A stretch of 63,500 nucleotides of DNA, the filler included, from Collodictyon triciliatum (Eukaryota): the NCBI GenBank assembly GCA_043381765.1. It is 10 parts of 10 records of this genome, joined end to end, with 100 filler letters (N's around TTAATTAATTAA, not from the genome) between each part and the next. Parts side by side here need not be neighbours in the genome. Positions count along the whole stretch, not along the records: positions 45,104 to 51,764 come from JBHJMP010004329.1; 9 more parts are not named here. One strand, 5' to 3'. The notes under the pieces were generated by a model that was not told the DNA's origin, did no database searches, and saw only the letters and a list, made by a program, of their open reading frames with translations. A program made the translations under genes and the position numbers. Position 1 is the stretch's first letter. Every line of letters starts with the position of its first letter. This document shows positions 16,501 through 51,764 of this stretch, piece after piece.

Positions 16501-19500
16501 ATATATTTGGCATCATATCTTTCATTTGTATGGACTCTATTTGGGGTTAAGATTATGCATAATACAATACTAACTAAATAAATATCAAATAACTATCTTA
16601 TATAGGAAAACTGAGGCCTTGTCCTCATTAAAGCAATCGCTGGATATTTTCATGTCTGCCCTGGGTGAAAATCATCCCAATGTTGTGGCCTGCTATGAGA
16701 TGATTGGAGACATCAGCCATGATTTGAAGGAGTATCTCCATTTATTAATTATTATTACATATTTAATTGAAAAGAATAATTTATTTACTCTTATTATCTT
16801 AGCTTTAAGGGTGCTCTGGAGGCGTATATAAAGACGCAGGATATTCGCGTGAGAACATTGGGCGAAAGACATGCTGATTATGCTACTTGCCTGGAGAATG
16901 TTGGCCGAACAAACTTTGAGCTTCAAAGGTTTTTTTGTCTTTATATTAAAAGAAATTAAATATTTTATTAAAACCAATGAAAAAATACTTCAATAATAAC
17001 TAATGCACATACATCTAGTTCTGCTCAATGTGTTGATTGCTTCCAGAAGGCAGCTGCGTTCAGAAAGGAGACAAAGACTGCCATATCATTGAAAGATGGC
17101 TCACAAATTGACAACATTATCCGCCTCATGAAGGACAAGAAGGAGCATGAAGCCGTCATTCATCTTTACAAAACGCTGATTCATCTATTCAGCAAGCTTT
17201 ACTCCATAGATTATCTTGGAATATGGAACAGCTGCGAAGAAATCGACAAGATTTACAAGGAACTGAAGCAGCACAAGGAAGCAATGGCATTCTGGGCTGA
17301 GATGAGAGACAGATTTGCTGATAAACTTGGATGGATTCACCCCAGAACATTGAATTCGTGCGAATACTTGTCCGTCCATTCAAAAGAAATCGGAAACAAC
17401 AAAGAGCCTGTCGAGTTTACAAGAGTCAAGGAATTTATCAGTGAAACTCTTGATGATGCAAAACTGGATGAGATATGGAATCATGAGCTAATCATCGCAT
17501 TGTTATTCAGAATTGTCTACATGTCAAAGACTGATGAGAGCAAATCAAAGGCTGCATCTGATGCAATCACAGTTTTGAATTTCATGAATGTTTCGTTCGG
17601 TGGAATGGATTTATCAAACATCAAAATTCCGCATGCAAATCTCAGTAATTCAATCCTTGATGGTGCAAACCTCACTGGTGCCAACTTGGATGATGCTGAC
17701 TTCACGAATTCGATGCTTGGTGATTGTGTTTTTGATAATGCAAATATGAGTAATGCGAAATTCGGAATTCCTCATGATAAACTAGAAGGACATGCTGATT
17801 ATGTCTATAGTGTTTGCAGTATTCAAGGACCGAATGGTGAAAATTGGTTGGCTTCTGGGAGTTATGATAATACAATACGTATTTGGGATGTAGCCACAGG
17901 AAACCAAATCAAAACATTGGAAGGACATACAGAATGGGTCACTAGTGTTTGCAGCATTCAAGGACCGAATGGTGAAAAGTGGTTGGCTTCTGGGAGTTAT
18001 GATAATACAATACGTATTTGGGATGCAGCCACAGGAAGCCAAATTAAAACATTATATGGTCATACAAGGCCTGTCACTAGTGTTTGCAGTATTCAAGGAC
18101 CGAATAGTGAGAATTGGTTGGCTTCTGGAAGTAGTGATGCAACAATACGTATATGGGATGTAGCCACAGGAAGTCAAATCAATACATTAAAAGGTCATAC
18201 AAGTGGTGTCAGTAGTGTTTGCAGTATTCAAGGACCGAATGGTGAAAATTGGTTGGCTTCTGGAAGTAAAGATAACACAATACGCATTCGGGATGTAGCC
18301 ACAGGAAACCAAATCAATACATTAAAAGGTCATACAAGTGGTGTCAATAGTGTTTGCAGCATTCAAGGACCGAATGGTGAAAATTGGTTGGCTTCTGGGA
18401 GTTATGATAATACAATACGTATTTGGGATGTAGCCACAGGAAACCAAATCAAAACATTAAAAGGCCATGAAGGATACATTAAAAGTGTTTGCAGTATTCA
18501 AGGACCAAATGGTGAAAAGTGGTTGGCCTCTGGAAGTAATGATTATACAATACGTATTTGGGATATAGCCACAGGAAACCAAATCAAATCATTAGAAGGT
18601 CATACAAATGCTGTCAATAGTGTTTGCAGCATTCAAGGACCAAATGGTGAAAAGTGGTTGGCTTCTGGAAGTAATGATAAAACAATACGTATTTGGGATG
18701 TAACCACAGGAAACCAAATCAAAACATTAAAAGGTCATACAAGTCATGTCATGAGTGTTTGCAGTGTTCAAGGGCCGAATGGTGAAAATTGGCTGGCTTC
18801 AGGAAGTAGTGATTATATAATACGTATCTGGGATGTAGCCACAGGAAACCAAATCAAAACATTGGAAGGACATACAGAATCTGTCATGAGTGTTTGCAGT
18901 ATTCAAGGACCGAATGGTGAAAATTGGCTGGCTTCTGGAAGTAGTGATAATACAATACGTGTTTGGGATATAGCCACAGGAAACCAAACACACAGCCTGC
19001 AAAAATCAGAAGTGACCTACACCCAAGGAAAATACCTCGTCAAGAAAGAAAAGCCTGACGAAGTCATCGCAGTATTCAACAGGACAAGTGATGCGATGAA
19101 CATGATTGACACCAACAGAATCCAAGATGCAAGGACAGTCCAGATTATCGGCCCAAGAAAGCTGCAAGGTGGAAACATCCAAATCAGAAATGTCACAGGA
19201 TTGAGTCAATTTAACAAGACCATTCTACTTTCAATCGGTGCTGCTTCCTTTGATGCGGACTTTGCTGCGTATTGTGAGCAGGGTAAGTTCACGAAGTTCC
19301 AGGCTCAGATGATGGCTGAGTGCTGTGAGAACGGGTGGGGTGTTGAGAAAGACACTGAGAAGGCCTATTATTGGAGATATGTCGCCTTTCCAAAATTATC
19401 ATTAGACTTTGATGGATTGAAACAACTTGCACAACAAGGCTCAAAAGATGCATTCAGTATTTTGAAAGAATTTGCTGAAATGAAGGATAGATGGGAAGAA

Positions 19501-19812
19501 TACAAATATCCACAAGCTGTTTCTGTTGTTGCTGAATGTTATGACAATGGATGGAGTGTTGAGAAGGACACCGTGAAAGCAGCTGACTGGCTTGGAAAAG
19601 CTGAAAACTTTGAAAAATTGAAGCAACTAGCACAACAAGGCTCAAAAGATGCATTCAATGTTTTGAAAGAAATGGCTGAAATGAAGGATAGATGGGAAGA
19701 ATACAAATATCCACAAGCTGTTTCTGTTGTTGCTGAATGCTATGAGAATGGATGGGGTGTTGAGAAGGACACCGAGAAAGCAGCTGAGTGGAGACAGAAA
19801 GCCTCAGCTTAA
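13536..19812 (+). CDS. STAND/NLR-like protein, 5'-partial: NACHT C-terminal half (NPHP3/TTC41-type) + TPR repeats + pentapeptide repeats + 9 WD40 + SEL1-like repeats
   Basis: Walker B region FVFLIDAINQI...LLTWLPKETPPNVAMVVST (13665-13818). GHPLYLRIILDEVRVFGVYEKLDE (14219-14290). Many short TPR exons (e.g. ESIENFEKAKSILEKSLGAKHASVAST, LGENHPNVVACYEMIG). Then one 2.8 kb terminal exon, 17019-19812. Confidence 0.85.
14121..14210 (+). mobile_element. 56-nt family-2 retroinsertion (14138-14193) with 17-bp TSD (1 mismatch), in an intron
   Basis: tattcttatctgatatt [...ctgcacaaaattgaaaggaagaataaaaaaaa] tattcttatgtgatatt. Confidence 0.75.
17782..18996 (+). repeat. Nine tandem 135-bp (45-aa) WD40 units with high nucleotide identity
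   Basis: Consensus GHTxxVxSVCSIQGPNGE(N/K)WLASGSxDxTIRIWDVATGNQIKTLx, counted 9 times in the translation. Confidence 0.95.
19417..19809 (+). repeat. Tandem 201-bp duplication encoding SEL1-like repeats
   Basis: LKQLAQQGSKDAF...YPQAVSVVAECY(D/E)NGW(S/G)VEKDT(V/E)KAA(D/E)W occurs twice (units start 19417 and 19618), plus an upstream diverged copy AECCENGWGVEKDTEKAYYW. Confidence 0.9.
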
Positions 19813-43193: not shown

Positions 43194-44176
43194 TTACTCT
43201 TGGGCGGGCTGGACGGCAGGGGCGGCCGGCTTGGCGACGGGGACGGCCTTCTTGATGGTCAGGGTGCGGCCTCCAACGACGACCTCCTGCAGCTTGTCGT
43301 AGGCGGCATCGCGGGCGGCGGCAGTCTCAAACTCGACAAAGCCGAAGCCCTTGCTGCGTCCGCGGGGGCGGGTGGCCACACGGCCGGAGACCGCGCTGAA
43401 CTGCTGGAAGATGCTGNNNNNNNNNNNNNNNNNNNNNNNNNNNNNNNNNNNNNNNNNNNNNNNNNNNNNNNNNNNNNNNNNNNNNNNNNNNNNNNNNNNN
43501 NNNNNNNNNNNNNNNNNNNNNNNNNNNNNNNNNNNNNNNNNNNNNNNNNNNNNNNNNNNNNNNNNNNNNNNNNNNNNNNNNNNNNNNNNNNNNNNNNNNN
43601 NNNNNNNNNNNNNNNNNNNNNNNNNNNNNNNNNNNNNNNNNNNNNNNNNNNNNNNNNNNNNNNNNNNNNNNNNNNNNNNNNNNNNNNNNNNNNNNNNNNN
43701 NNNNNNNNNNNNNNNNNNNNNNNNNNNNNNNNNNNNNNNNTGGGGCCGGCGGCGCGGCGCGGGCGGCGGGGGCGGTTGCGGTAGGGCGAGGCGGAGCGGG
43801 AGCGGGAGCGGGAGTGGGAGCGGGGCTTCCTCTCCTCGCGGTCGGCCTGGGGCCTGCGGGGGCGGGCGGGCTGCAGGCGCAGGGCGCGGCCGTCCAGCTC
43901 CTTGTCGTTGAAGTCCTTGAGGGCCTGCTGGGCGCTGGCCTCGTCCGCAAAGGTCACGAAGCCGTAGCCCAGTGCGCGGCGGCCGCGGGCGGCAACAGTC
44001 GCATCCGTGGGCTGCAGCGCTCCAAAGAACTCGCGCAGGCCCTCCTTGGTCGTCTTGAACGGCAGGTTGCCCACAAAGACGCGGTTCGAGGGCGCGGCGG
44101 GGGCGGCGGCGGCGGCGGCGGCGGCAGGGGCAGGGGCGGCGGGGGCGGCGGCGGCAGCTGCGTCGGTGGTGGCCAT
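43194..44176 (-). CDS. Two-RRM RNA-binding protein with RS-rich linker (internal N gap), very GC-rich
   Basis: RRM1: RVFVGNLPF...LGYGFVTF...ELDGRALRL. Linker RSHSRSRSRSASP. RRM2: RSKGFGFVEF...VVGGRTLTIKKA. Confidence 0.85.
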
Positions 44177-45103
44177 GGGGGCGGGCAGGCGGGCGAAGAG
44201 ACTGGGGCTGGGGTGGGCTTAGTACTCTCGCGGGCTGGACACTATGCGCACTCGGCTTGCTTTGTTTTGCTTCGCGCGTGGTTTTCTTTTCTTTTGGTTT
44301 GTTATGTTGGTTCTTTGATCGGTTGCTTTCGTCGCTCTGGTTGACTGGGTTCTCTGCTTGCGGCTCTGCTTCTTGGCCCGGCTGCGGTCGCTGCGTGATC
44401 GCGCCTGGGCTTTGTGCTGATTCATCTCTGGTGCCGTGGCCACAGGGGCGGGCGTGTGCGTTTGTGCGGATTGATTGGGGGCGCGAGTGTGCTTGGCTTT
44501 GGGCGGGTGCGTTTGTGACTGGGAAATAAGGGGGGAGGCGCGGTTTGCGTACTTTCTCTGTGCTTCGGTTGTCAATGTCTCGGAAATCGCGGCTGGGCGG
44601 GTCGTGTGCGGAGGGGCGACCAGTTTGCGGATTTTTTTTTTCTTATTCATTGAATTTGTGGTCAAATGGTTCGGGTCGCTCGCCGCATGGGTGCTGTATT
44701 CACTGAATTGGATGAAATAAATATATGTGATGTGTAATTATATATCATAACACATAATACATACTATCTTGATCAATAAGCATCAATTTAAAGTATTTTG
44801 AAAAATTGTGGAATATATTCCGCTTCTGGATTAACGCTCAGCCTTTTTTTTCCGGGTTGCGTTTTACATAAACCACCTGGGCTACATTTCTTCACTATCT
44901 CCCTCACGTTTCTTAGCCTTCTCACAAAAAAACAAAAAACAAAAAACAAAAAACAAAAAACAAAAAACAAAAAACAAAAAACAAAAAACAAAAAACAAAA
45001 AACNNNNNNNNNNNNNNNNNNNNNNNNNNNNNNNNNNNNNNNNNNNNTTAATTAATTAANNNNNNNNNNNNNNNNNNNNNNNNNNNNNNNNNNNNNNNNN
45101 NNN

Positions 45104-47497
45104 CAAGTAACCTCAGGAGTTGTAACCAGGTCACAAAGCAAACAAGCAAGTGAAGCACCATCTCAGCAAGAGTCAAAAAAACCGTCACCTGAAAAAGAAA
45201 AACCAAAGACTCCTCCAAAACCTGCACCAACTTTAGATATAGAAGCCGTATTAAAAAGCCCAAAGTTAAAACCATTAATTGAAAAGAAAAAGTCAAAAAA
45301 ACCACCAAAACCAGTGGTTGATGAATCAGAGAATTTTGTAGCTGCTGACAAATTTGATTTTGAAGGGAACAGACCTAAAGATACACCTTCACCTCCAAAA
45401 GAAAAAACTCCTCCTCCAAAAGCAAAAACTCCATCTCCTCCAAAAGAAAAAACTCCACCCACAAAATCAACACCACCGAAACAACCAACACCCCAAGCAA
45501 AGCCAATTGTAAAAAAAAAATTAACTTTTTCACCGATGGAAGGGTCACCTAAAGAACGTCGCAAATCATTATATGAAACAAAACAGGAGCCATATAAACA
45601 ATCGTTGATGCAAAGGTGGGGCAATCAATTAAAAATAATGTACAGCACTAAAACTACTGTATCAAAGTTTTTAGGTGTGCTGAGTGATTTTCTTGAAACA
45701 ACAGCAATTCCTGACAAAGTAAAAAAGCGAAAGTTTTTGTTAAAGAAAATAGGTTTTTTGTTGGGTGAGGATTCTCATAAGTTTTTTAATAAAGCATTTG
45801 GATTTAGGATTCCTGACATGGATAATGATGCTGATATAGATGGGGACGACTTGGTCATGGATTTAAAAGACTTTGTAATGACAAAACAGGTTGAACAGCC
45901 TGCGACAATTGAAAAGTTTATTAATTATATTATGTCTATATCACCACAAAGTGAAGCTATAAAGGGAGTTAAAGCTGTTGAAGCAGAAGCTACACCTGTT
46001 AAATCAGACGCAGTTAGAAAAAGTTTTAAAAGCCAGAAGCAACCGGCTATGGAAGAGGAGCTTGCAAAGGCAGCAAAAGAGAAGGAGGAGAAATCAAGAA
46101 AGGCTATAGCTGAACAAGAAGAAAGGAAGGAGCAGATAAAAAAAGAAAAAGAGCGGATTGAAAGAGAAATATTTGCGCATGCAAAACACCAGGCAGTAAA
46201 TAGAGATAAAACAGAAAAAGATAAAGAGGAAGAATTAGAATATCAAAAAATTCCATTGATGGACCGATTTAAGTATAATAAAACAGACGATAGTTATCGG
46301 TTTGTGACTAGCCAAATCTTGACTAGCATTGATACACTACCTCCAGAAAACGAAAGTTTAAGGCAGTCATTCTTAAGACAATTGTACACGGAATTTCAAA
46401 AAGTTTTAGAACGATTGGGATATGATTTTAGTAGAGATAGGTTAGGATTTAATTATCTAACTTTGGATATTGTAGATGACCCTGAAGACCGATTGAATTT
46501 TACAAATAATATATACTTTGCAGTATTTAACGAACTGAATACATTAACTGATATTAGTGTTACACGAGTTGTAAGAAATTTGGGTCAGTTGAGACCCTAT
46601 ATAATTGAAAATATGAATCAATATGCCCTTGAGTATAGTAGAGCTAGATTTGGTGATACATATACTATGGTTGAAGCCAAAAAAAGCAAGGGGTGAAAAA
46701 GAAGTAGATATATCCGAGTTGTATGGGACTGCTAAAAAAATACCTCTAGTAAAGTTGTTTGAGTTGGGTGATGAGACAATTGGTTCAAACACTATTTTTG
46801 ATTGGGACTATGATATTTCAATATATTTTGAGGACGCTGAAGATATAGTCAATGCTATTGCAAAAGGAAAAGCAGACCGTGTCACCATAAATATTTTTGC
46901 AGAGAATGTTGGTAATCAATCGGCAATGCATAAGATGTCTTATGATAATATTAAAATAGTCAAAACATTTTTTGAAGCTATTAATGAAACGTTGGAAATT
47001 CCATTTGGTCAAGAACAATATTCATTATTTCCATTATACCCTTGGTCTTTAGACGCAAGAGCCGCATCTATGTTTTTAAAAGCAGTTCGTGATTTATTTT
47101 TGGATTTACAAGTTGAAGATAGCTTTGAGAAGTATTTAAGATTCATTGATATATATCGAAAAAAATGTGGGCAATCTCAGACCATACGGCGGGGTATCAT
47201 GTTGATGATGATTTGAATATATCCGATGTCACAAGATATGGACAACAGGAAGACGATTGTGTAGACGCCCAGACGGATTTCAATACGACACTTAATACGG
47301 TGTTAGCAGAGGATGTTGATTTGCTAGAAGACTTTGGAATAGAACCAGATGATCGACAGGGTATAGTTGAAAGTAAAAAATCTTCAGCGCGTCCAGTATC
47401 TATAAAATATAGGAGTATTGCAAAAGGAGAATCAAAATATTTATTTAAAATCTGGTTAGATGATAATAAAATAAGATTTATAGGTATAACTGCATAA
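45104..47497 (+). pseudogene. Large ORFan (>790 aa, 5'-partial, Pro/Lys-rich N-terminus) split by two frameshifts at A7 runs
   Basis: The frame is open from the contig edge to 46696. A +1 shift at gccAAAAAAAgc (~46679-46685) joins ORF 46623..47216. A -1 shift at cgAAAAAAAtg (~47159-47165) joins ORF 47165..47497. Confidence 0.55.
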
Positions 47498-47517
47498 ATA
47501 AATTTCTCTTTATGTAT

Positions 47518-48066
47518 ATGAATACAAGTGGGGATACAATAGAATATACAGGCAAAGGAACTCGAGGAACAGGAAGAAAAGGTACAATTGTAAGAGAGGT
47601 AGGTTAACGTGCCTCTCGTGAAGATGAGGGAGACCCAGTTGGTGAGTTTACATTAAGTGAATTTAAAATTGCAATTGCTGAGGGATTTCGTATGGCCCAG
47701 GGTGAAGATTTTGAAGCTGAATTGACAAAAGTAAGACCGGGTGAAAATATACCAACGAGAAATCTGTCTGACTTTATTATAAGTCTTAATGACCCAGATG
47801 TATCTTTACAACAAAAGAAACAGAATCTAATCAAACAATTTGAAGAGCTAGGAGCACAATATATTCAATTCCCTAATGAAACTAATAGGGATATTGTAAG
47901 ACGACTAGACTTTATTAAAAAAAAAATAAAGATACAGAACGAAGCATATGCATCTATGCGCACAGGTGAGCCTTTGAAATTAGATAAAGGATTTATCCAA
48001 ACATCTGAATTTTCCCAGGAAAAGATTTTATCCAGCGCAGTGAATGGCAGCCCCTGTGGAAATTGA
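47518..48066 (+). pseudogene. Viral-type ORFan with one in-frame TAA (47605-47607)
   Basis: MNTSGDTIEYTGKGTRGTGRKGTIVREVG*RASREDEGDPVGEFTLSEF... continues in frame into ORF 47692..48066. Confidence 0.5.
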
Positions 48067-48098
48067 AACTCCATAATATATAGTTTCAATTTCCACAG
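48054..48098. other. 17-bp perfect inverted repeat with 11-nt loop
   Basis: ctgtggaaattgaaact-ccataatatat-agtttcaatttccacag. Confidence 0.9.
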
Positions 48099-48253
48099 CG
48101 GCCTTTTCAACCCGCCAAATTATGTCCTTTATATACTGTCTTCCGCCCTTGACCACAAAACATTACACCCTTAATTAACGCTTACCTTCCATATGCGGCC
48201 GCCTTCCACCCTTAAACAACGGACACCTTCCATATATGGTATGTGTGGTCGGT

Positions 48254-48499
48254 TTATTTCTTCAGCTTGGACGCGGCGACAACCAGTCTCTGCCCTTCTG
48301 CCATCTTCTTCTTTTGCAATGCTATCTTGAGCAATTCTCGACGCGCAGCCTTGTCTCCGTCTTTTATCACGGCATCTTTGTTTTGCAGTTGTGGATGCTG
48401 ATGCTCGATTACGTTCTCTACATTCAAATCAGTCACGCACGTTTCGGCCACCGGCTTGAATCCTTTATTTTGATGGCGATAGAAAGAACGGCTGCTCAT
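48254..48499 (-). CDS. Small basic ORFan of the viral element (81 aa)
   Basis: acaATG start; stop overlaps AATAAA; divergent from 48589. Confidence 0.55.
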   Translation of the reverse strand: MSSRSFYRHQNKGFKPVAETCVTDLNVENVIEHQHPQLQNKDAVIKDGDKAARRELLKIALQKKKMAEGQRLVVAASKLKK

Positions 48500-48588
48500 T
48501 GTAATCTATTTGATATGGTTAGTACGGCATTAATTACATACTTAAAACTTTGCGTTTGATTTGTATAAAACTAATCTTTCAATTTGAT

Positions 48589-49170
48589 ATGCCGCCCCGC
48601 AAGTATGTCCGCAAAACCCACAGCGAAGATGACGCCAAGAAACCCAAGACCAAGACTGCCTTGCCTACCAACGACAAGGACTACACAAAAGTTCAATACA
48701 GTGACCTTAAGAAAGGTGACTACATTATGTACGAGATGAAAGCTCGCACGTACAAAGACAAGGAATATCCAGCCAAGGTCAACCAAGGGTTCGTGTCTCT
48801 GATTCAGAATGAAGTGGGAGACGCTCTCTGGAAAGACCAAGACGGCAAGGTCCTCGGCATGACAAACTATGGCAAATCGTGGACCAACAACACCAAGGAC
48901 ATCGGCGACATTTACCGACAGAGTGATGAAGCCAACATAGCCAAGCGAGAGAAAGGATTGAAAAAACATATGGACAATGCTCCTGCCCGTGCAGAGAAAC
49001 GCAAGGTTGTAGCCAAGGTCGAAAAAATGCTTCAAGAAGAAGAGAAAGATGAAGCACAGAAAAAAGAGAAAAAGCCGGACGAGCTTATTGCCCTGGCCAA
49101 GGAGATCGGTACTGAGATTAAAAAATCTAAGAAGCCTGCGAAGAAACCACGGTCATCTTCCGACGCTTGA
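48589..49170 (+). CDS. Lys-rich ORFan of the viral element (193 aa)
   Basis: ATG at 48589 (MPPRKYVRK...); coherent codon usage; 3' end overlaps the integrase 3' end by 44 nt. Confidence 0.7.
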   Translation: MPPRKYVRKTHSEDDAKKPKTKTALPTNDKDYTKVQYSDLKKGDYIMYEMKARTYKDKEYPAKVNQGFVSLIQNEVGDALWKDQDGKVLGMTNYGKSWTNNTKDIGDIYRQSDEANIAKREKGLKKHMDNAPARAEKRKVVAKVEKMLQEEEKDEAQKKEKKPDELIALAKEIGTEIKKSKKPAKKPRSSSDA

Positions 49171-50581
49171 TCGGTTTGATTGGCTCTACGGTTATCGGTT
49201 TGCTTACAGCTACCTCTTCCATAGGCTGCACCTGCAATAAAGTGCCTAAAATTCTTTTCAACTTATTAAAGTTTTTAGTTTGTAGCGTTGTCATTTTAGG
49301 GTTATCTCCGTGCTTAGCAATAAACGCATTATATGCTTGCTTGACTTTCGGTTCTAATCTATCGAGCTCGGCTTGTCGCCCTGGCTTGCTCGGAGCATTC
49401 TTGCCAGTGCGGTTTGTGAAATTTTTTGTGTCTGATGTCCACACGTTCTTATCAAAGTCAGCGCGAGCATCCTGCACGTTCGGAGCCAAATACGGCCCCT
49501 TCTTTTTTTTTACACTAGCAGCGTCTCGCTTCAGCAAATCAACCTTTGGCGTAAAGTCTTTGTCTGTGTCTTTGTCCACAGGCTGCAGGTCCCTGCGCAG
49601 AAATTTCTTCCCCTTCAATACACTCGAGTCACTTTCATTCAGCGCCTTTAGTTTATATGTGGGTGCTTTGAATCCGTCCTTCGAGACTTCGCGGCTTATA
49701 ATTTTAAACAACGCAACAGTGAATTTCGGGATCCAGTTTTTATTGGTCTTGAATTTATTGCGCTCTTGCGTTGTCAAGTTTGTTTTCTTCAGGTTCACAC
49801 GCACTAGTTGGCCAACCTCGAGTAAGTCGTCCTTGACTGAAGTGGCTGCTCGGTCTAATTTTTTCTGGTTAGCTTCTATTAACTTTGTCAAGTTTTCTTC
49901 TGTAGCTGCATTGTTGGGAATGACCCCGGTGTCACGGTTCGGCTGATCATTGATGCTGTCTGCAGTTTTTTCTAGCACTTCTTTCGTTAAGGTTTCCCCT
50001 GTCTTTTGGTGGTACTTGTACAAACTATTCTTCACCACACTATTCATGCGCTCCACGTATGCCTGGCTCGTAGGGTTGTACGCACTCGACTTGACTTGCT
50101 TGAGGCCGTGTTCTTGCAGCCACGCTTTCTCGTACTTGAACTCTGTGCCGTTGTCGCTCTGGATGACCTTGAGGGCAGGATAATCCTTCTTAAACTCAAG
50201 CACAGCTTTTTTGCTTTCGGCCAGAGTCTTGTCAGTCAGCGGGTACAGAAACACCTTGCGTGTTAAAAGCACGACACATGTCATTAGATAATTGTATTTC
50301 ACTCCAGTATGGTCTTCTGGGTACAGTCCCTTGGTATATATCAAATCTATCTGTGCGTACGACGGATCAGTGACATTAAAGGAAGTGACGTCCTTGCTTT
50401 TGTAAGCAGGCTTGCTAATTTGTTGATAGGGATTCTTTTTCATCCATGCCTCAATGTAACTGCGAGGTATCTCCTTGTTGAAGTGGTGATACATAGCATC
50501 AACACTGTTTACTTGCCCTGGGTCATTAAACCTTTTCTGTAGCCTCTCGTTATATTGGTCACTGGTACTTGGGTTACTCAT
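49127..50581 (-). CDS. Retroviral-like (rve) integrase, Polinton/Maverick/mavirus type, apparently intact
   Basis: Catalytic D (YAQIDLI), D (IQSDNGTEF) and E (AYVERMN). Followed by INDQPNRDTGVIP and the Polinton-type C-terminal domain LEVGQLVRV...WIPKFTVALFKI...TYKL...FLRRDLQPV. No RT or LTR context. Confidence 0.92.
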   Translation of the reverse strand: MSNPSTSDQYNERLQKRFNDPGQVNSVDAMYHHFNKEIPRSYIEAWMKKNPYQQISKPAYKSKDVTSFNVTDPSYAQIDLIYTKGLYPEDHTGVKYNYLMTCVVLLTRKVFLYPLTDKTLAESKKAVLEFKKDYPALKVIQSDNGTEFKYEKAWLQEHGLKQVKSSAYNPTSQAYVERMNSVVKNSLYKYHQKTGETLTKEVLEKTADSINDQPNRDTGVIPNNAATEENLTKLIEANQKKLDRAATSVKDDLLEVGQLVRVNLKKTNLTTQERNKFKTNKNWIPKFTVALFKIISREVSKDGFKAPTYKLKALNESDSSVLKGKKFLRRDLQPVDKDTDKDFTPKVDLLKRDAASVKKKKGPYLAPNVQDARADFDKNVWTSDTKNFTNRTGKNAPSKPGRQAELDRLEPKVKQAYNAFIAKHGDNPKMTTLQTKNFNKLKRILGTLLQVQPMEEVAVSKPITVEPIKPIKRRKMTVVSSQAS

Positions 50582-50670
50582 TACAATAACAATACTTTTT
50601 TTTGTGTAAAAAACGCAGCTTAAAAACTATTCAAAATCATAGATTAACTAAACAAGCATTTGCACCCACA

Positions 50671-51174
50671 ATGGCACGCACGTTAACTAGACAAGAACAC
50701 GACGACATGACAACCCGCACCTTGACCGGAGAAGAGCAAGCAAGACTCAACTACCTGTGTTTCATCGAATGGGGAGAAAACCTAGACGGCGTGCGACAGA
50801 TGGTTACAATTGCAAGGCGCTTACGCAAAAGCACTCATAAAAACTACATCAAGAGAAAAGAGAAAAGGAAACATACCAATGGCTCACATGAATTTCAAGT
50901 CGTCGAAGCGCCCGTCACTAAGATGCCCCTTGTCGATTACACAGGAATTTCTTCTAGTTCCTCGGGCTCTTCGCTCGACTCTGGCAGCCCAGACTCTCTA
51001 CGTGCTGCTGCCGAACGCGTCCGCAAAGCCCTGACCCCTCCTGCCTCTCCCCCTAAAATTTCTTACTCTCTCAAATCAACACCGACCCCCAGTCCTGTTA
51101 CATGCGGTTTTGACATGATGGAAGTATTGCCAACAGGCATGCACTCCAGTAACTTCATAAGATGCAAAGAATAA
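50671..51174 (+). CDS. ORFan of the viral element (167 aa, Ser/Pro-rich C-terminus)
   Basis: acaATG at 50671, divergent from the integrase; stop overlaps AATAAA. Confidence 0.6.
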   Translation: MARTLTRQEHDDMTTRTLTGEEQARLNYLCFIEWGENLDGVRQMVTIARRLRKSTHKNYIKRKEKRKHTNGSHEFQVVEAPVTKMPLVDYTGISSSSSGSSLDSGSPDSLRAAAERVRKALTPPASPPKISYSLKSTPTPSPVTCGFDMMEVLPTGMHSSNFIRCKE

Positions 51175-51187
51175 AATGTCTTTCACT

Positions 51188-51764
51188 TTATTCTTTTGTG
51201 CGTGCTCTCTTGGAGCTGCTGACGATCGTATCAGTAGAGAAATGCCCGTGTAAATTGGCTCCGTCTGTCATTAAAGCGCGTACCTTCGGGTAATCAATCT
51301 CATACTTGCTGTGTTTAATTTTTATATGGTCCTTGTATTGTGTTTTAAAACTCATCCATCGTTCGCTATTGGTGAACGACCTATACTCGAGCACTTTTCG
51401 ACTGGGCAATCTTTTGTTGCTAAACAGCTTGTATATGTCGTATATTTGATCAATGGCAAGTTCAAATGGAGCGCCATTGTGCCACTTACACTTACCTATG
51501 AAGAAGAGGTCGAAGCTGTCCACCGCATAGTCATTCCATTCAACAAATATGAACCTGATAAACTGTTCAACAGGGTCGGCATGTTTTTCTGCCAGTGTCT
51601 CGCATGTCTCCCTTTTTGGAAACGCGTTAAAGTTAAATTTCGCATCATACTCATTCAACAAAACCTTAACAAAAACCTTGACAAAGTCGGGGTCGCCTGT
51701 TTCGTTTGTTAATTGCTCTATTTCTTCTTCGTCAAGTCGGTGCTCTCGTACGTCAAACACCGGG
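51188..51764 (-). CDS. C-terminal part of a D5-like/SF3 primase-helicase (5'-truncated)
   Basis: PVFDV...EQLTNETGDPDFVKVFVKVLL...FNFNAFPKRE...DPVEQFI...IDQIYDIYKLF resembles the region after the SF3 helicase core in PLV/virophage primase-helicases. Walker motifs are off-contig. Confidence 0.6.

Follow-up and report, generated by a model that had tools for sequence, protein, structure and literature searches.

Two viral elements on one contig

Positions 45104 to 51764 of the window, i.e., the 63,500 nt of Collodictyon triciliatum DNA in which contigs of roughly 6.7 kb are chained by N-linkers, form one whole contig of 6,661 bp (G000:C4329, hereafter C4329) that is bounded by linker gaps. This contig is dense in coding sequence and shows no signs of introns, as the original prediction had described; that prediction took it for a single fragment of an endogenous Polinton-like virus (PLV) or virophage, whereas it consists of two elements that meet at 48054/48055. 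GC content is 34.8% to the left of this junction and 44.3% to its right, and sister contigs bearing the integrase align to C4329 solely from 48055 rightwards. The right-hand part (48055–51764) belongs to an endogenous PLV about 18 kb long, of which it forms the integrase end, and the left-hand part (45104–48054) is a second, broken PLV (family B) that served as its insertion target. The inserted virus begins with a 43-bp palindrome, H, at the tip of its terminal inverted repeat (TIR; Table 1). The virus itself is an unnamed member of a known PLV type, and the novelty lies in the structure of its ends and the scars that go with them.

Table 1. Features of contig C4329 (positions in the window).
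Feature	Position	Strand	Remarks
Family-B long gene, cut by contig start	45104..47497	+	three frames: 45104-46696, 46623-47216, 47165-47497
Family-B 260-aa gene, interrupted after about residue 180	47521..48054	+	tblastn 90.5% to C3512 residues 3-180
5-bp target-site duplication (TSD), GCCCC	48050..48054	.	single in the empty target, repeated at the C4329 and C3401 junctions
Terminal palindrome H, 43 bp	48055..48097	.	16-bp inverted arms, 11-bp AT-rich asymmetric spacer, TG..CA ends
Inner TIR, 140 bp	48098..48237	.	93.6% identical to capsid end on C3401; whole TIR about 183 bp
ORF81, variable slot	48254..48499	-	90% identical on C2008; unrelated ORFs of 126, 144 or 163 aa elsewhere
ORF193, conserved integrase neighbour	48589..49170	+	predicted small beta-barrel (SH3/Sm-like) and long helix
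rve/DDE integrase, intact, 484 aa	49127..50581	-	open frame; D79, D143, E177
ORF167	50671..51174	+	64-80% identity in seven sister contigs; no match in Pfam search
Primase-helicase, C-terminal 191 aa, cut by contig end	51188..51764	-	94% identical to C2008 protein

The left-hand element is a separate repeat with four copies (C3512, C962, C5539 and C8443) whose DNA is 89–93% identical, and C962 carries an integrase, a helicase, an HNH gene, an ATPase and a protein of 593 aa that is related to the capsid protein. The count of five unrecognised open reading frames (ORFs) in the original prediction has to be lowered, in that the three left-hand ORFs are frameshifted pieces of one gene, matching residues 84–619, 615–777 and 775–886 of a single open frame on C3512, and a 124-aa ORF is part of the 260-aa gene that the insertion cut. 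The remainder of that gene is found on C3401, followed by GCCCC and then by the opposite (capsid) end of the inserted virus, and the uninterrupted target site is present in four sister contigs as well as in the independent sequencing runs X2, X3 and X7. This continuity of the target proves that C4329 and C3401 are the two ends of the same insertion.

The assembly searched is fragmented (75 Mb in 14,576 contigs) and C4329 itself has no host genes, which would suit an assembly chimera or a free-virus contaminant; these explanations, and the further one that the integrase is of the Ginger or long terminal repeat (LTR) type, are nevertheless very improbable. Both junctions share the TSD and together restore the target gene, sister copies of the element adjoin non-viral DNA, and in run X3 a 74-nt record links other AT-rich DNA to exactly base 48055, i.e., the same junction with a different flank. 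The integrase is a stand-alone ORF with linked capsid and ATPase genes, unlike the polyprotein or capsid-less setting of Ginger and LTR elements, and LTR polyproteins match just 18–34% of it. A quick tree, which has long branches and took in no Ginger or Polinton reference, groups it with PLV-linked integrases (a clade of 27 rows, SH-aLRT 96) and separates it from four LTR-type rows. The outcomes that the original prediction had named as fatal to it, namely a Ginger- or LTR-like integrase without linked morphogenesis genes, or a lack of host junctions, were thus not encountered.

That the element is an integrated PLV is almost certain from the genes on its sister contigs, where the capsid protein and ATPase that the original prediction had suggested looking for were indeed located. 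C2008, 91% identical to the C4329 element over 3.7 kb, continues into an A32-like packaging ATPase (a 240-aa ORF; Pox_A32, E=2e-8, 34.5 bits against a cut-off of 22.8), a putative penton (a 255-aa ORF with 35 matches in the genome and a weak match to DUF5901, E=7.7e-5, under the cut-off) and a fibre-like ORF. Behind the C3401 end lies the major capsid protein (MCP), a 529-aa protein without a match in the Pfam search that is predicted to form a double jelly-roll (pLDDT 80, pTM 0.81). Its top Foldseek matches are the MCPs of iridovirus, PBCV-1, Sputnik and mavirus (E-values from 3e-16 to 6e-11 in PDB and down to 4e-20 in BFVD), at 6–13% identity to these structural neighbours; those of Sputnik and mavirus, at 9–11%, rank below iridovirus and other double jelly-rolls. 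Across sister contigs the gene order is H-TIR, capsid, large ORF, fibre-like ORF, putative penton, ATPase, primase-helicase, ORF167, integrase, ORF193 and TIR-H. The length of about 18 kb, which is a sum over the sister contigs C2416 and C2008 and not one sequence, falls with the TIRs inside the 15–30 kb expected of a PLV genome, and the TIRs and TSDs of 5–6 bp that the original prediction had looked for are present, the latter at 5 bp.

The same gene content bears on two further proposals, a new lineage of integrating viruses and a mavirus-like arrangement. The MCP has 91 matches in the genome and 40 relatives in metagenomes, all unnamed or hypothetical and 40–96% identical (a search of IMG/VR returned none), such that the lineage is new in not having been named previously and is of a known kind. 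The mavirus-like arrangement was not borne out. Matches to pPolB (PF03175) occur in only three contigs (C7968, C10997 and C4366), none of which holds a close copy of the integrase, and the replicase slot is filled by the primase-helicase; no maturation protease family was detected among 40 ORFs scanned, which comprise no single complete element. C4366 also carries a 37% relative of the putative penton, and a pPolB-bearing relative may therefore exist in the genome. Of the original prediction, the PLV and its intact integrase survive; the nesting, the palindrome at the terminus and the lone scars formed no part of it.

Some repeats have received more than one insertion. The family-B 260-aa gene holds an independent insertion (C5043, 5557–5655) 22 bp from that of C4329, and two others (C14504:325 and C5834:199) lie about 10 bp apart in another repeat, common to C5539 and C4516; repeats with such clustered independent insertions are possible hot spots.

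A terminal palindrome in two orientations

When folded, the palindrome H forms a stem of 16 bp (z=-8.2 and -7.9 relative to 200 shuffled sequences), and a pattern search of the genome found it at 20 sites in the subfamily of the window and at 40 in a diverged subfamily, with none for the control (reversed) patterns. Between the two subfamilies, which together constitute family A (60 sites), the arms vary yet remain complementary. At 29 of the 60 sites the inner TIR is present and the palindrome is the end of an element; at the other 31 it is not. The two spacer orientations occur 1 and 5 times at integrase ends and 4 and 3 times at capsid ends in the window's subfamily, and 9 and 6 times in the diverged subfamily, so that the tip occurs in flip and flop forms, with both orientations at both ends. 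The genomes of poxviruses and parvoviruses terminate in hairpins whose incompletely paired, AT-rich tip likewise exists in two reverse-complement (flip and flop) forms. For the present tips, covalent closure is proposed.

Ends can be paired by their TSDs: we observed six matched pairs against a null mean of 0.9 (P=0.0002). Without one poly-A pair that crosses families, the spacers are direct in three pairs and inverted in two. Two of these five plausible pairs have different arm variants at their opposite ends, each internally symmetric, and in one of them the inner TIRs are unalignable as well. The C4329/C3401 pair is the one proven by target continuity, the other four being defined by TSD matching alone. 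Arm position 4 is either G or C among the ends, and all 29 are self-complementary there, with no hybrids.

Because the symmetric tips differ between the two ends of an element and because spacer orientation is free, a linear genome with fold-back ends would account for these patterns, and a single shared junction would not; we regard hairpin ends of the free genome as probable. Alternatively, the free virus may be circular or concatemeric and contain only one palindrome, flanked by inverted repeats; packaging or integration would then duplicate this palindrome in the manner of a short LTR, and recombination between the TIRs would flip it. The independent metagenomic run X4 contains a relative of the right-hand element at depth 120–165, with the left (target) part at no more than 3.3, and a host-like junction is absent among its five records. 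It also contains a 71-nt unitig, composed of the spacer and 30 bases on each side, that has TIR on both sides (TIR'-H-TIR) and a depth of 37 against 65.7 for the TIR. This junction, the 1.8-fold depth of the TIR over it, and the direct orientation of three of the five pairs agree with a circle or concatemer; however, one shared palindrome cannot yield the two inverted pairs or the two pairs with different, internally symmetric arms (pairs recognised by TSD match alone), and on balance we find this alternative improbable. Taken together, the X4 junction and the X3 record indicate that the tip occurs in two states, one integrated and the other a fold-back or head-to-head junction.

Terminal palindromes are found in other PLVs of this genome. 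One further family (C27:16399–16440 and 26 further sites) has a perfect or near-perfect 42-bp palindrome and is for that reason without flip and flop forms, although lone copies with 5-bp duplications exist. A cassette of the family-B type (C5660:4739–4782, C12219, C10300 and others) apparently starts with TCT and ends with AGA, as opposed to TG..CA, which suggests a different end specificity of its integrase.

Lone palindromes and the fate of proviruses

At the 31 family-A sites that are not element ends, neither a TIR nor any tested PLV protein was found within up to 1.5 kb. Perfect 5-bp duplications flank 24 of them (23 distinct loci, C5985 being the same locus as C2974), four have a duplication with one mismatch and three have none, where the chance of a 5-bp match is 0.0023 per site; C14504, C3935 and C9244, whose TSDs are unclear, were left out of the counts of lone palindromes, or solos. 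Duplications of 4, 6 or 7 bp were not seen at any of the 31, and the 6-bp TSD of Polintons and Mavericks is therefore not the rule here (24 at 5 bp, 0 at 6 bp). One solo, on C102, sits in a repeat whose other copies are empty. In two other PLV families perfect 5-bp duplications were likewise present, at 9 of the 15 sites fetched for the family with the 42-bp palindrome (27 found) and at 10 of the 18 fetched for another (78 strand matches), and the non-solo sites of both adjoin PLV genes; family B contributes one solo among nine sites if, in our reading, the cassette is extended by 3 bp on each side. In all, lone palindromes with the marks of insertion number more than 40 sites in at least four PLV families, about 20 of them outside family A. 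We consider it likely that they are footprints of elements since lost, as excision scars would be. The 27 scars of family A exceed the roughly 15 proviruses implied by its 29 ends, and surveys of capsid genes would therefore undercount past invasions. A retrovirus can similarly be lost to leave a solo LTR, that is, one terminal repeat and the TSD; the present repeat differs in being a 43-bp palindrome that ends the TIR of a DNA virus without reverse transcriptase.

The arms of the solos provide evidence on how these scars arose. Hybrid arms at position 4 were found in 6 of the 23 solos with perfect duplications (P=0.005 against the 29 ends) and in 9 of the 27 with no more than one TSD mismatch (P=0.0006), whereas other arm positions never exceed three mismatches each. 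Hybrids account for 8 of 9 solos in the spacer class for which both arm variants occur at ends, and the 13 solos of the other class include none (P=3e-5). Point mutation was rejected as the source of the hybrid arms, which fit the joining of the outer arms of two different ends.

One could suppose that the solos were never proviruses, and that, once a genome had circularised, the integrase cut its left-right junction at each of the CA ends, with insertion of the 43-bp piece alone. H does have TG..CA at both ends, as would a minimal integrase substrate, the TIR'-H-TIR junction is present in X4, a left-right junction could bear hybrid arms, and no pair of full and solo alleles was found among the fetched contigs. 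However, same-end junctions would yield symmetric solos, in conflict with the predominance of hybrids in the informative class, and passage through hybrid left-right junctions should leave hybrid ends, of which there are none. Such mini-insertion seems to us rather unlikely.

The account that we favour, and hold to be somewhat better than an even prospect, is that the 43-bp terminal palindromes represent hairpin tips, now unfolded, of a linear genome, and that the whole element is later excised at these sites, leaving a lone scar. The free genome would be linear with fold-back ends, and copying through the tips would generate flip and flop spacers, such that each tip stays self-complementary while the two tips of a genome diverge. 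The chemistry of DDE enzymes suggests that each hairpin would be nicked by the rve integrase after the CA at its base and joined to target DNA with a 5-bp stagger, and that repair would then open it out to 43 bp. The element could next be removed by exchange between its terminal palindromes, which would act as short near-direct repeats as in the formation of solo LTRs, and a hybrid palindrome would remain with the original duplication, as the scars display. Given the footprints, live virus would be released in this process with about even odds, or slightly less.

Removal of the element need not involve any viral function, and host repair or recombination might delete the provirus between 43-bp repeats that are nearly identical and prone to form cruciforms; nothing viral would be released, and reactivation would proceed by copying in place. 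Solo LTRs form by passive recombination of this kind. We found no viral recombinase, solos appear older than ends (other arm pairs are mismatched in 12 of 345 cases against 5 of 435), and hybrid arms are predicted equally well by passive loss. On the other hand, all but a few decayed solos retain the exact 43-bp length and a parental spacer, which is precise for 43 bp of homology (although our search patterns would miss imprecise scars), and passive loss alone leaves the flip and flop forms and the X4 junction unaccounted for. The scars are common to passive loss and to the account that we favour, and the two overlap; passive loss by itself is a possibility to be taken seriously, albeit not the one we would expect.

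A more active version would make the element a hairpin-telomere virus: its retrovirus-type integrase would integrate it by opening the hairpin, and the provirus would be freed when these same palindromes are resolved as telomeres. The virus would keep the inner arms as its new hairpin ends, the chromosome would retain the 43-bp hybrid scar, and the candidates for the resolving activity would be the integrase, ORF193 or a giant-virus junction resolvase. We think this version doubtful; if it is true, past reactivations could be read off and counted from the scars, and it is the resolving activity that would switch the provirus on.

Several observations weigh against hairpin tips and excision as we propose them. 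No contig contains a whole element, and the X4 junction fits a hairpin, a circle or a concatemer alike. No resolving enzyme came to light: the genome has no match to the tyrosine recombinase family PF00589, an absence not proven in an incomplete assembly, and ORF193 shows only a common fold. No locus among the fetched contigs is present in both the full and the solo state. None of the 27 solos has a hybrid spacer, and by our estimate random crossovers in inverted pairs would give about four, such that exchange may need matching spacers. Some of the TSDs in the AT-rich families other than A lie in simple repeats and may be due to chance. Lastly, 11 MCP loci in the JGI collection show no terminal palindrome, their contigs stopping short of one; three of the 11 match the inner TIR near contig ends. 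The palindrome itself has no match in IMG/VR or in JGI metagenomes.

It is a standing question how the ends of endogenous PLVs and virophages are replicated when no terminal protein is present, and how such elements exit or are purged from host chromosomes. The present genome offers three measurable handles on it, namely the flip and flop tips, symmetric ends that evolve independently of each other, and lone scars (more than 40) whose target duplications are intact; and because the substrate is only 43 bp and the integrase is known, the mechanism is testable in vitro. In the available parts of the reports on EMALEs, their loss by recombination or excision is listed merely among possibilities (PMC8547959), whereas scars can be counted here, and excision is mentioned for nested retrotransposons only (PMC10945749).

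Relatives and the remaining genes

Comparison with published systems draws on the accessible parts of each report. The closest parallel lies in the virophages and subtype-4 PLVs of Halocafeteria seosinensis (10.64898/2026.07.28.741278), which have palindromes at the TIR ends beside the TSD, non-pPolB replicases and RVE integrases; the present elements share this arrangement, together with replicase swaps and nesting, and differ in palindrome length (42–44 bp against 52 nt). That preprint proposes hairpin priming by analogy with poxviruses and parvoviruses and asks for tests of the hairpin model; its main text does not contain the word 'solo' and its section 7 has neither spacer inversion nor hybrid scars, although its supplements may list solos. 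PLVs with an rve integrase and a primase-helicase were already described (PMC10120064, PMC12220804, PMC4642659), and the terms 'palindrom' and 'hairpin' do not occur in the available text of PMC10120064 or PMC12220804. More broadly, our literature search, outside which most subscription papers fell, returned no report of lone terminal palindromes or of flip and flop tips in PLVs.

With free and endogenous PLVs (PMC4642659, PMC10120064, PMC12220804, 10.64898/2026.06.19.733378), the element shares a double jelly-roll MCP, an A32 ATPase, a primase-S3H replicase, an rve integrase, TIRs and a length within 15–30 kb; its 255-aa putative penton may correspond to their single jelly-roll minor capsid protein, and the ORFs scanned yielded no protease here either. 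It differs from those described in an MCP that Pfam does not match and that is too distant from its structural neighbours for assignment to a PLV group such as PgVV-like, GKS or TVS, and in a TSD of 5 bp. The mavirus and EMALEs of Cafeteria burkhardae resemble it in their rve integrase, S3H helicase, TIRs, similar TSD length and many copies per genome (PMC8547959, PMC10945749, PMC3671162), and the present family departs from them in the lack of pPolB and, among the ORFs scanned, of a protease. Polintons and Mavericks likewise have an integrase, but here pPolB is absent and the TSD is 5 bp, not 6 bp.

The integrase of the contig is complete, with 33 residues between D143 and E177 as originally predicted. 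It matches Pfam rve at E=3.3e-6 (27.7 bits, under the curated cut-off of 32.6), its best PDB match is the foamy-virus integrase (E=2e-4), and the genome contains 36 matches to it, of which 15 are 88–100% identical. The integrase alignment shows a conserved C-terminal block, which presumably resembles that of Polinton integrases, as the original prediction had proposed.

One ORF away lies the predicted helicase-like C-terminus, whose homologue on C2008 is a complete protein of 768 aa with the helicase-type DUF5906 above cut-off. The N-terminal region of this C2008 type has invariant columns (D-x-x-N-x-H, K, Q/E and DG) that presumably correspond to PolA motifs, a correspondence that PDB and Pfam hidden Markov model searches did not confirm, and the protein is likely to be a primase-helicase of the PolA-like (TVpol)-S3H type; in an atlas search the hits were unnamed viral clusters (0.93) and a D5_N cluster (0.87). 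Copies with 93–97% identical integrases differ in their replicase, which is of the C2008 type, a distant version of it (C5043), or an unrelated type (C4630 and C2077) that we assume from its motifs to be AEP-like, and nucleotide identity ends abruptly on both sides of the gene. PolA-S3H and AEP-S3H replicases are reported to replace each other in small eukaryotic DNA viruses (10.64898/2026.10.13.758929); unlike the cases in the available part of that report, the swap seen here took place within one genome and between close copies.

ORF193 adjoins the integrase in all families seen, both close and distant, and has 32 relatives in a library of 1.84 billion. Its model (pLDDT 82) reaches a best PDB Z of 7.2, with none of the PDB matches at Z >= 8 and an empty atlas search, and Foldseek gave weak matches to uncharacterised Mimiviridae proteins (E ~2e-4, TM 0.3). 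Several of its relatives, and some integrases, terminate in RGRP motifs, which in the former we assume to be AT-hook-like. ORF81, on the other side, had no match in the Pfam search.

Among the remaining genes of the family, the fibre-like genes (C2008:105–2816, C2077:5478–7931, C3494, C1066 and C3928) have a common N-terminus and vary in length from about 540 to 904 aa, and the neighbouring gene, of 1,300–1,670 aa, is just about 25–30% identical between close relatives. Elsewhere in the window, positions 43259–44650, on a shorter contig, hold a GC-rich RRM-like gene that may be DNA of another organism, the rest of the window having 30–45% GC, and positions 16981–19812 hold an open frame of 943 aa with, by eye, apparent pentapeptide, WD40-type and Sel1-type repeats.

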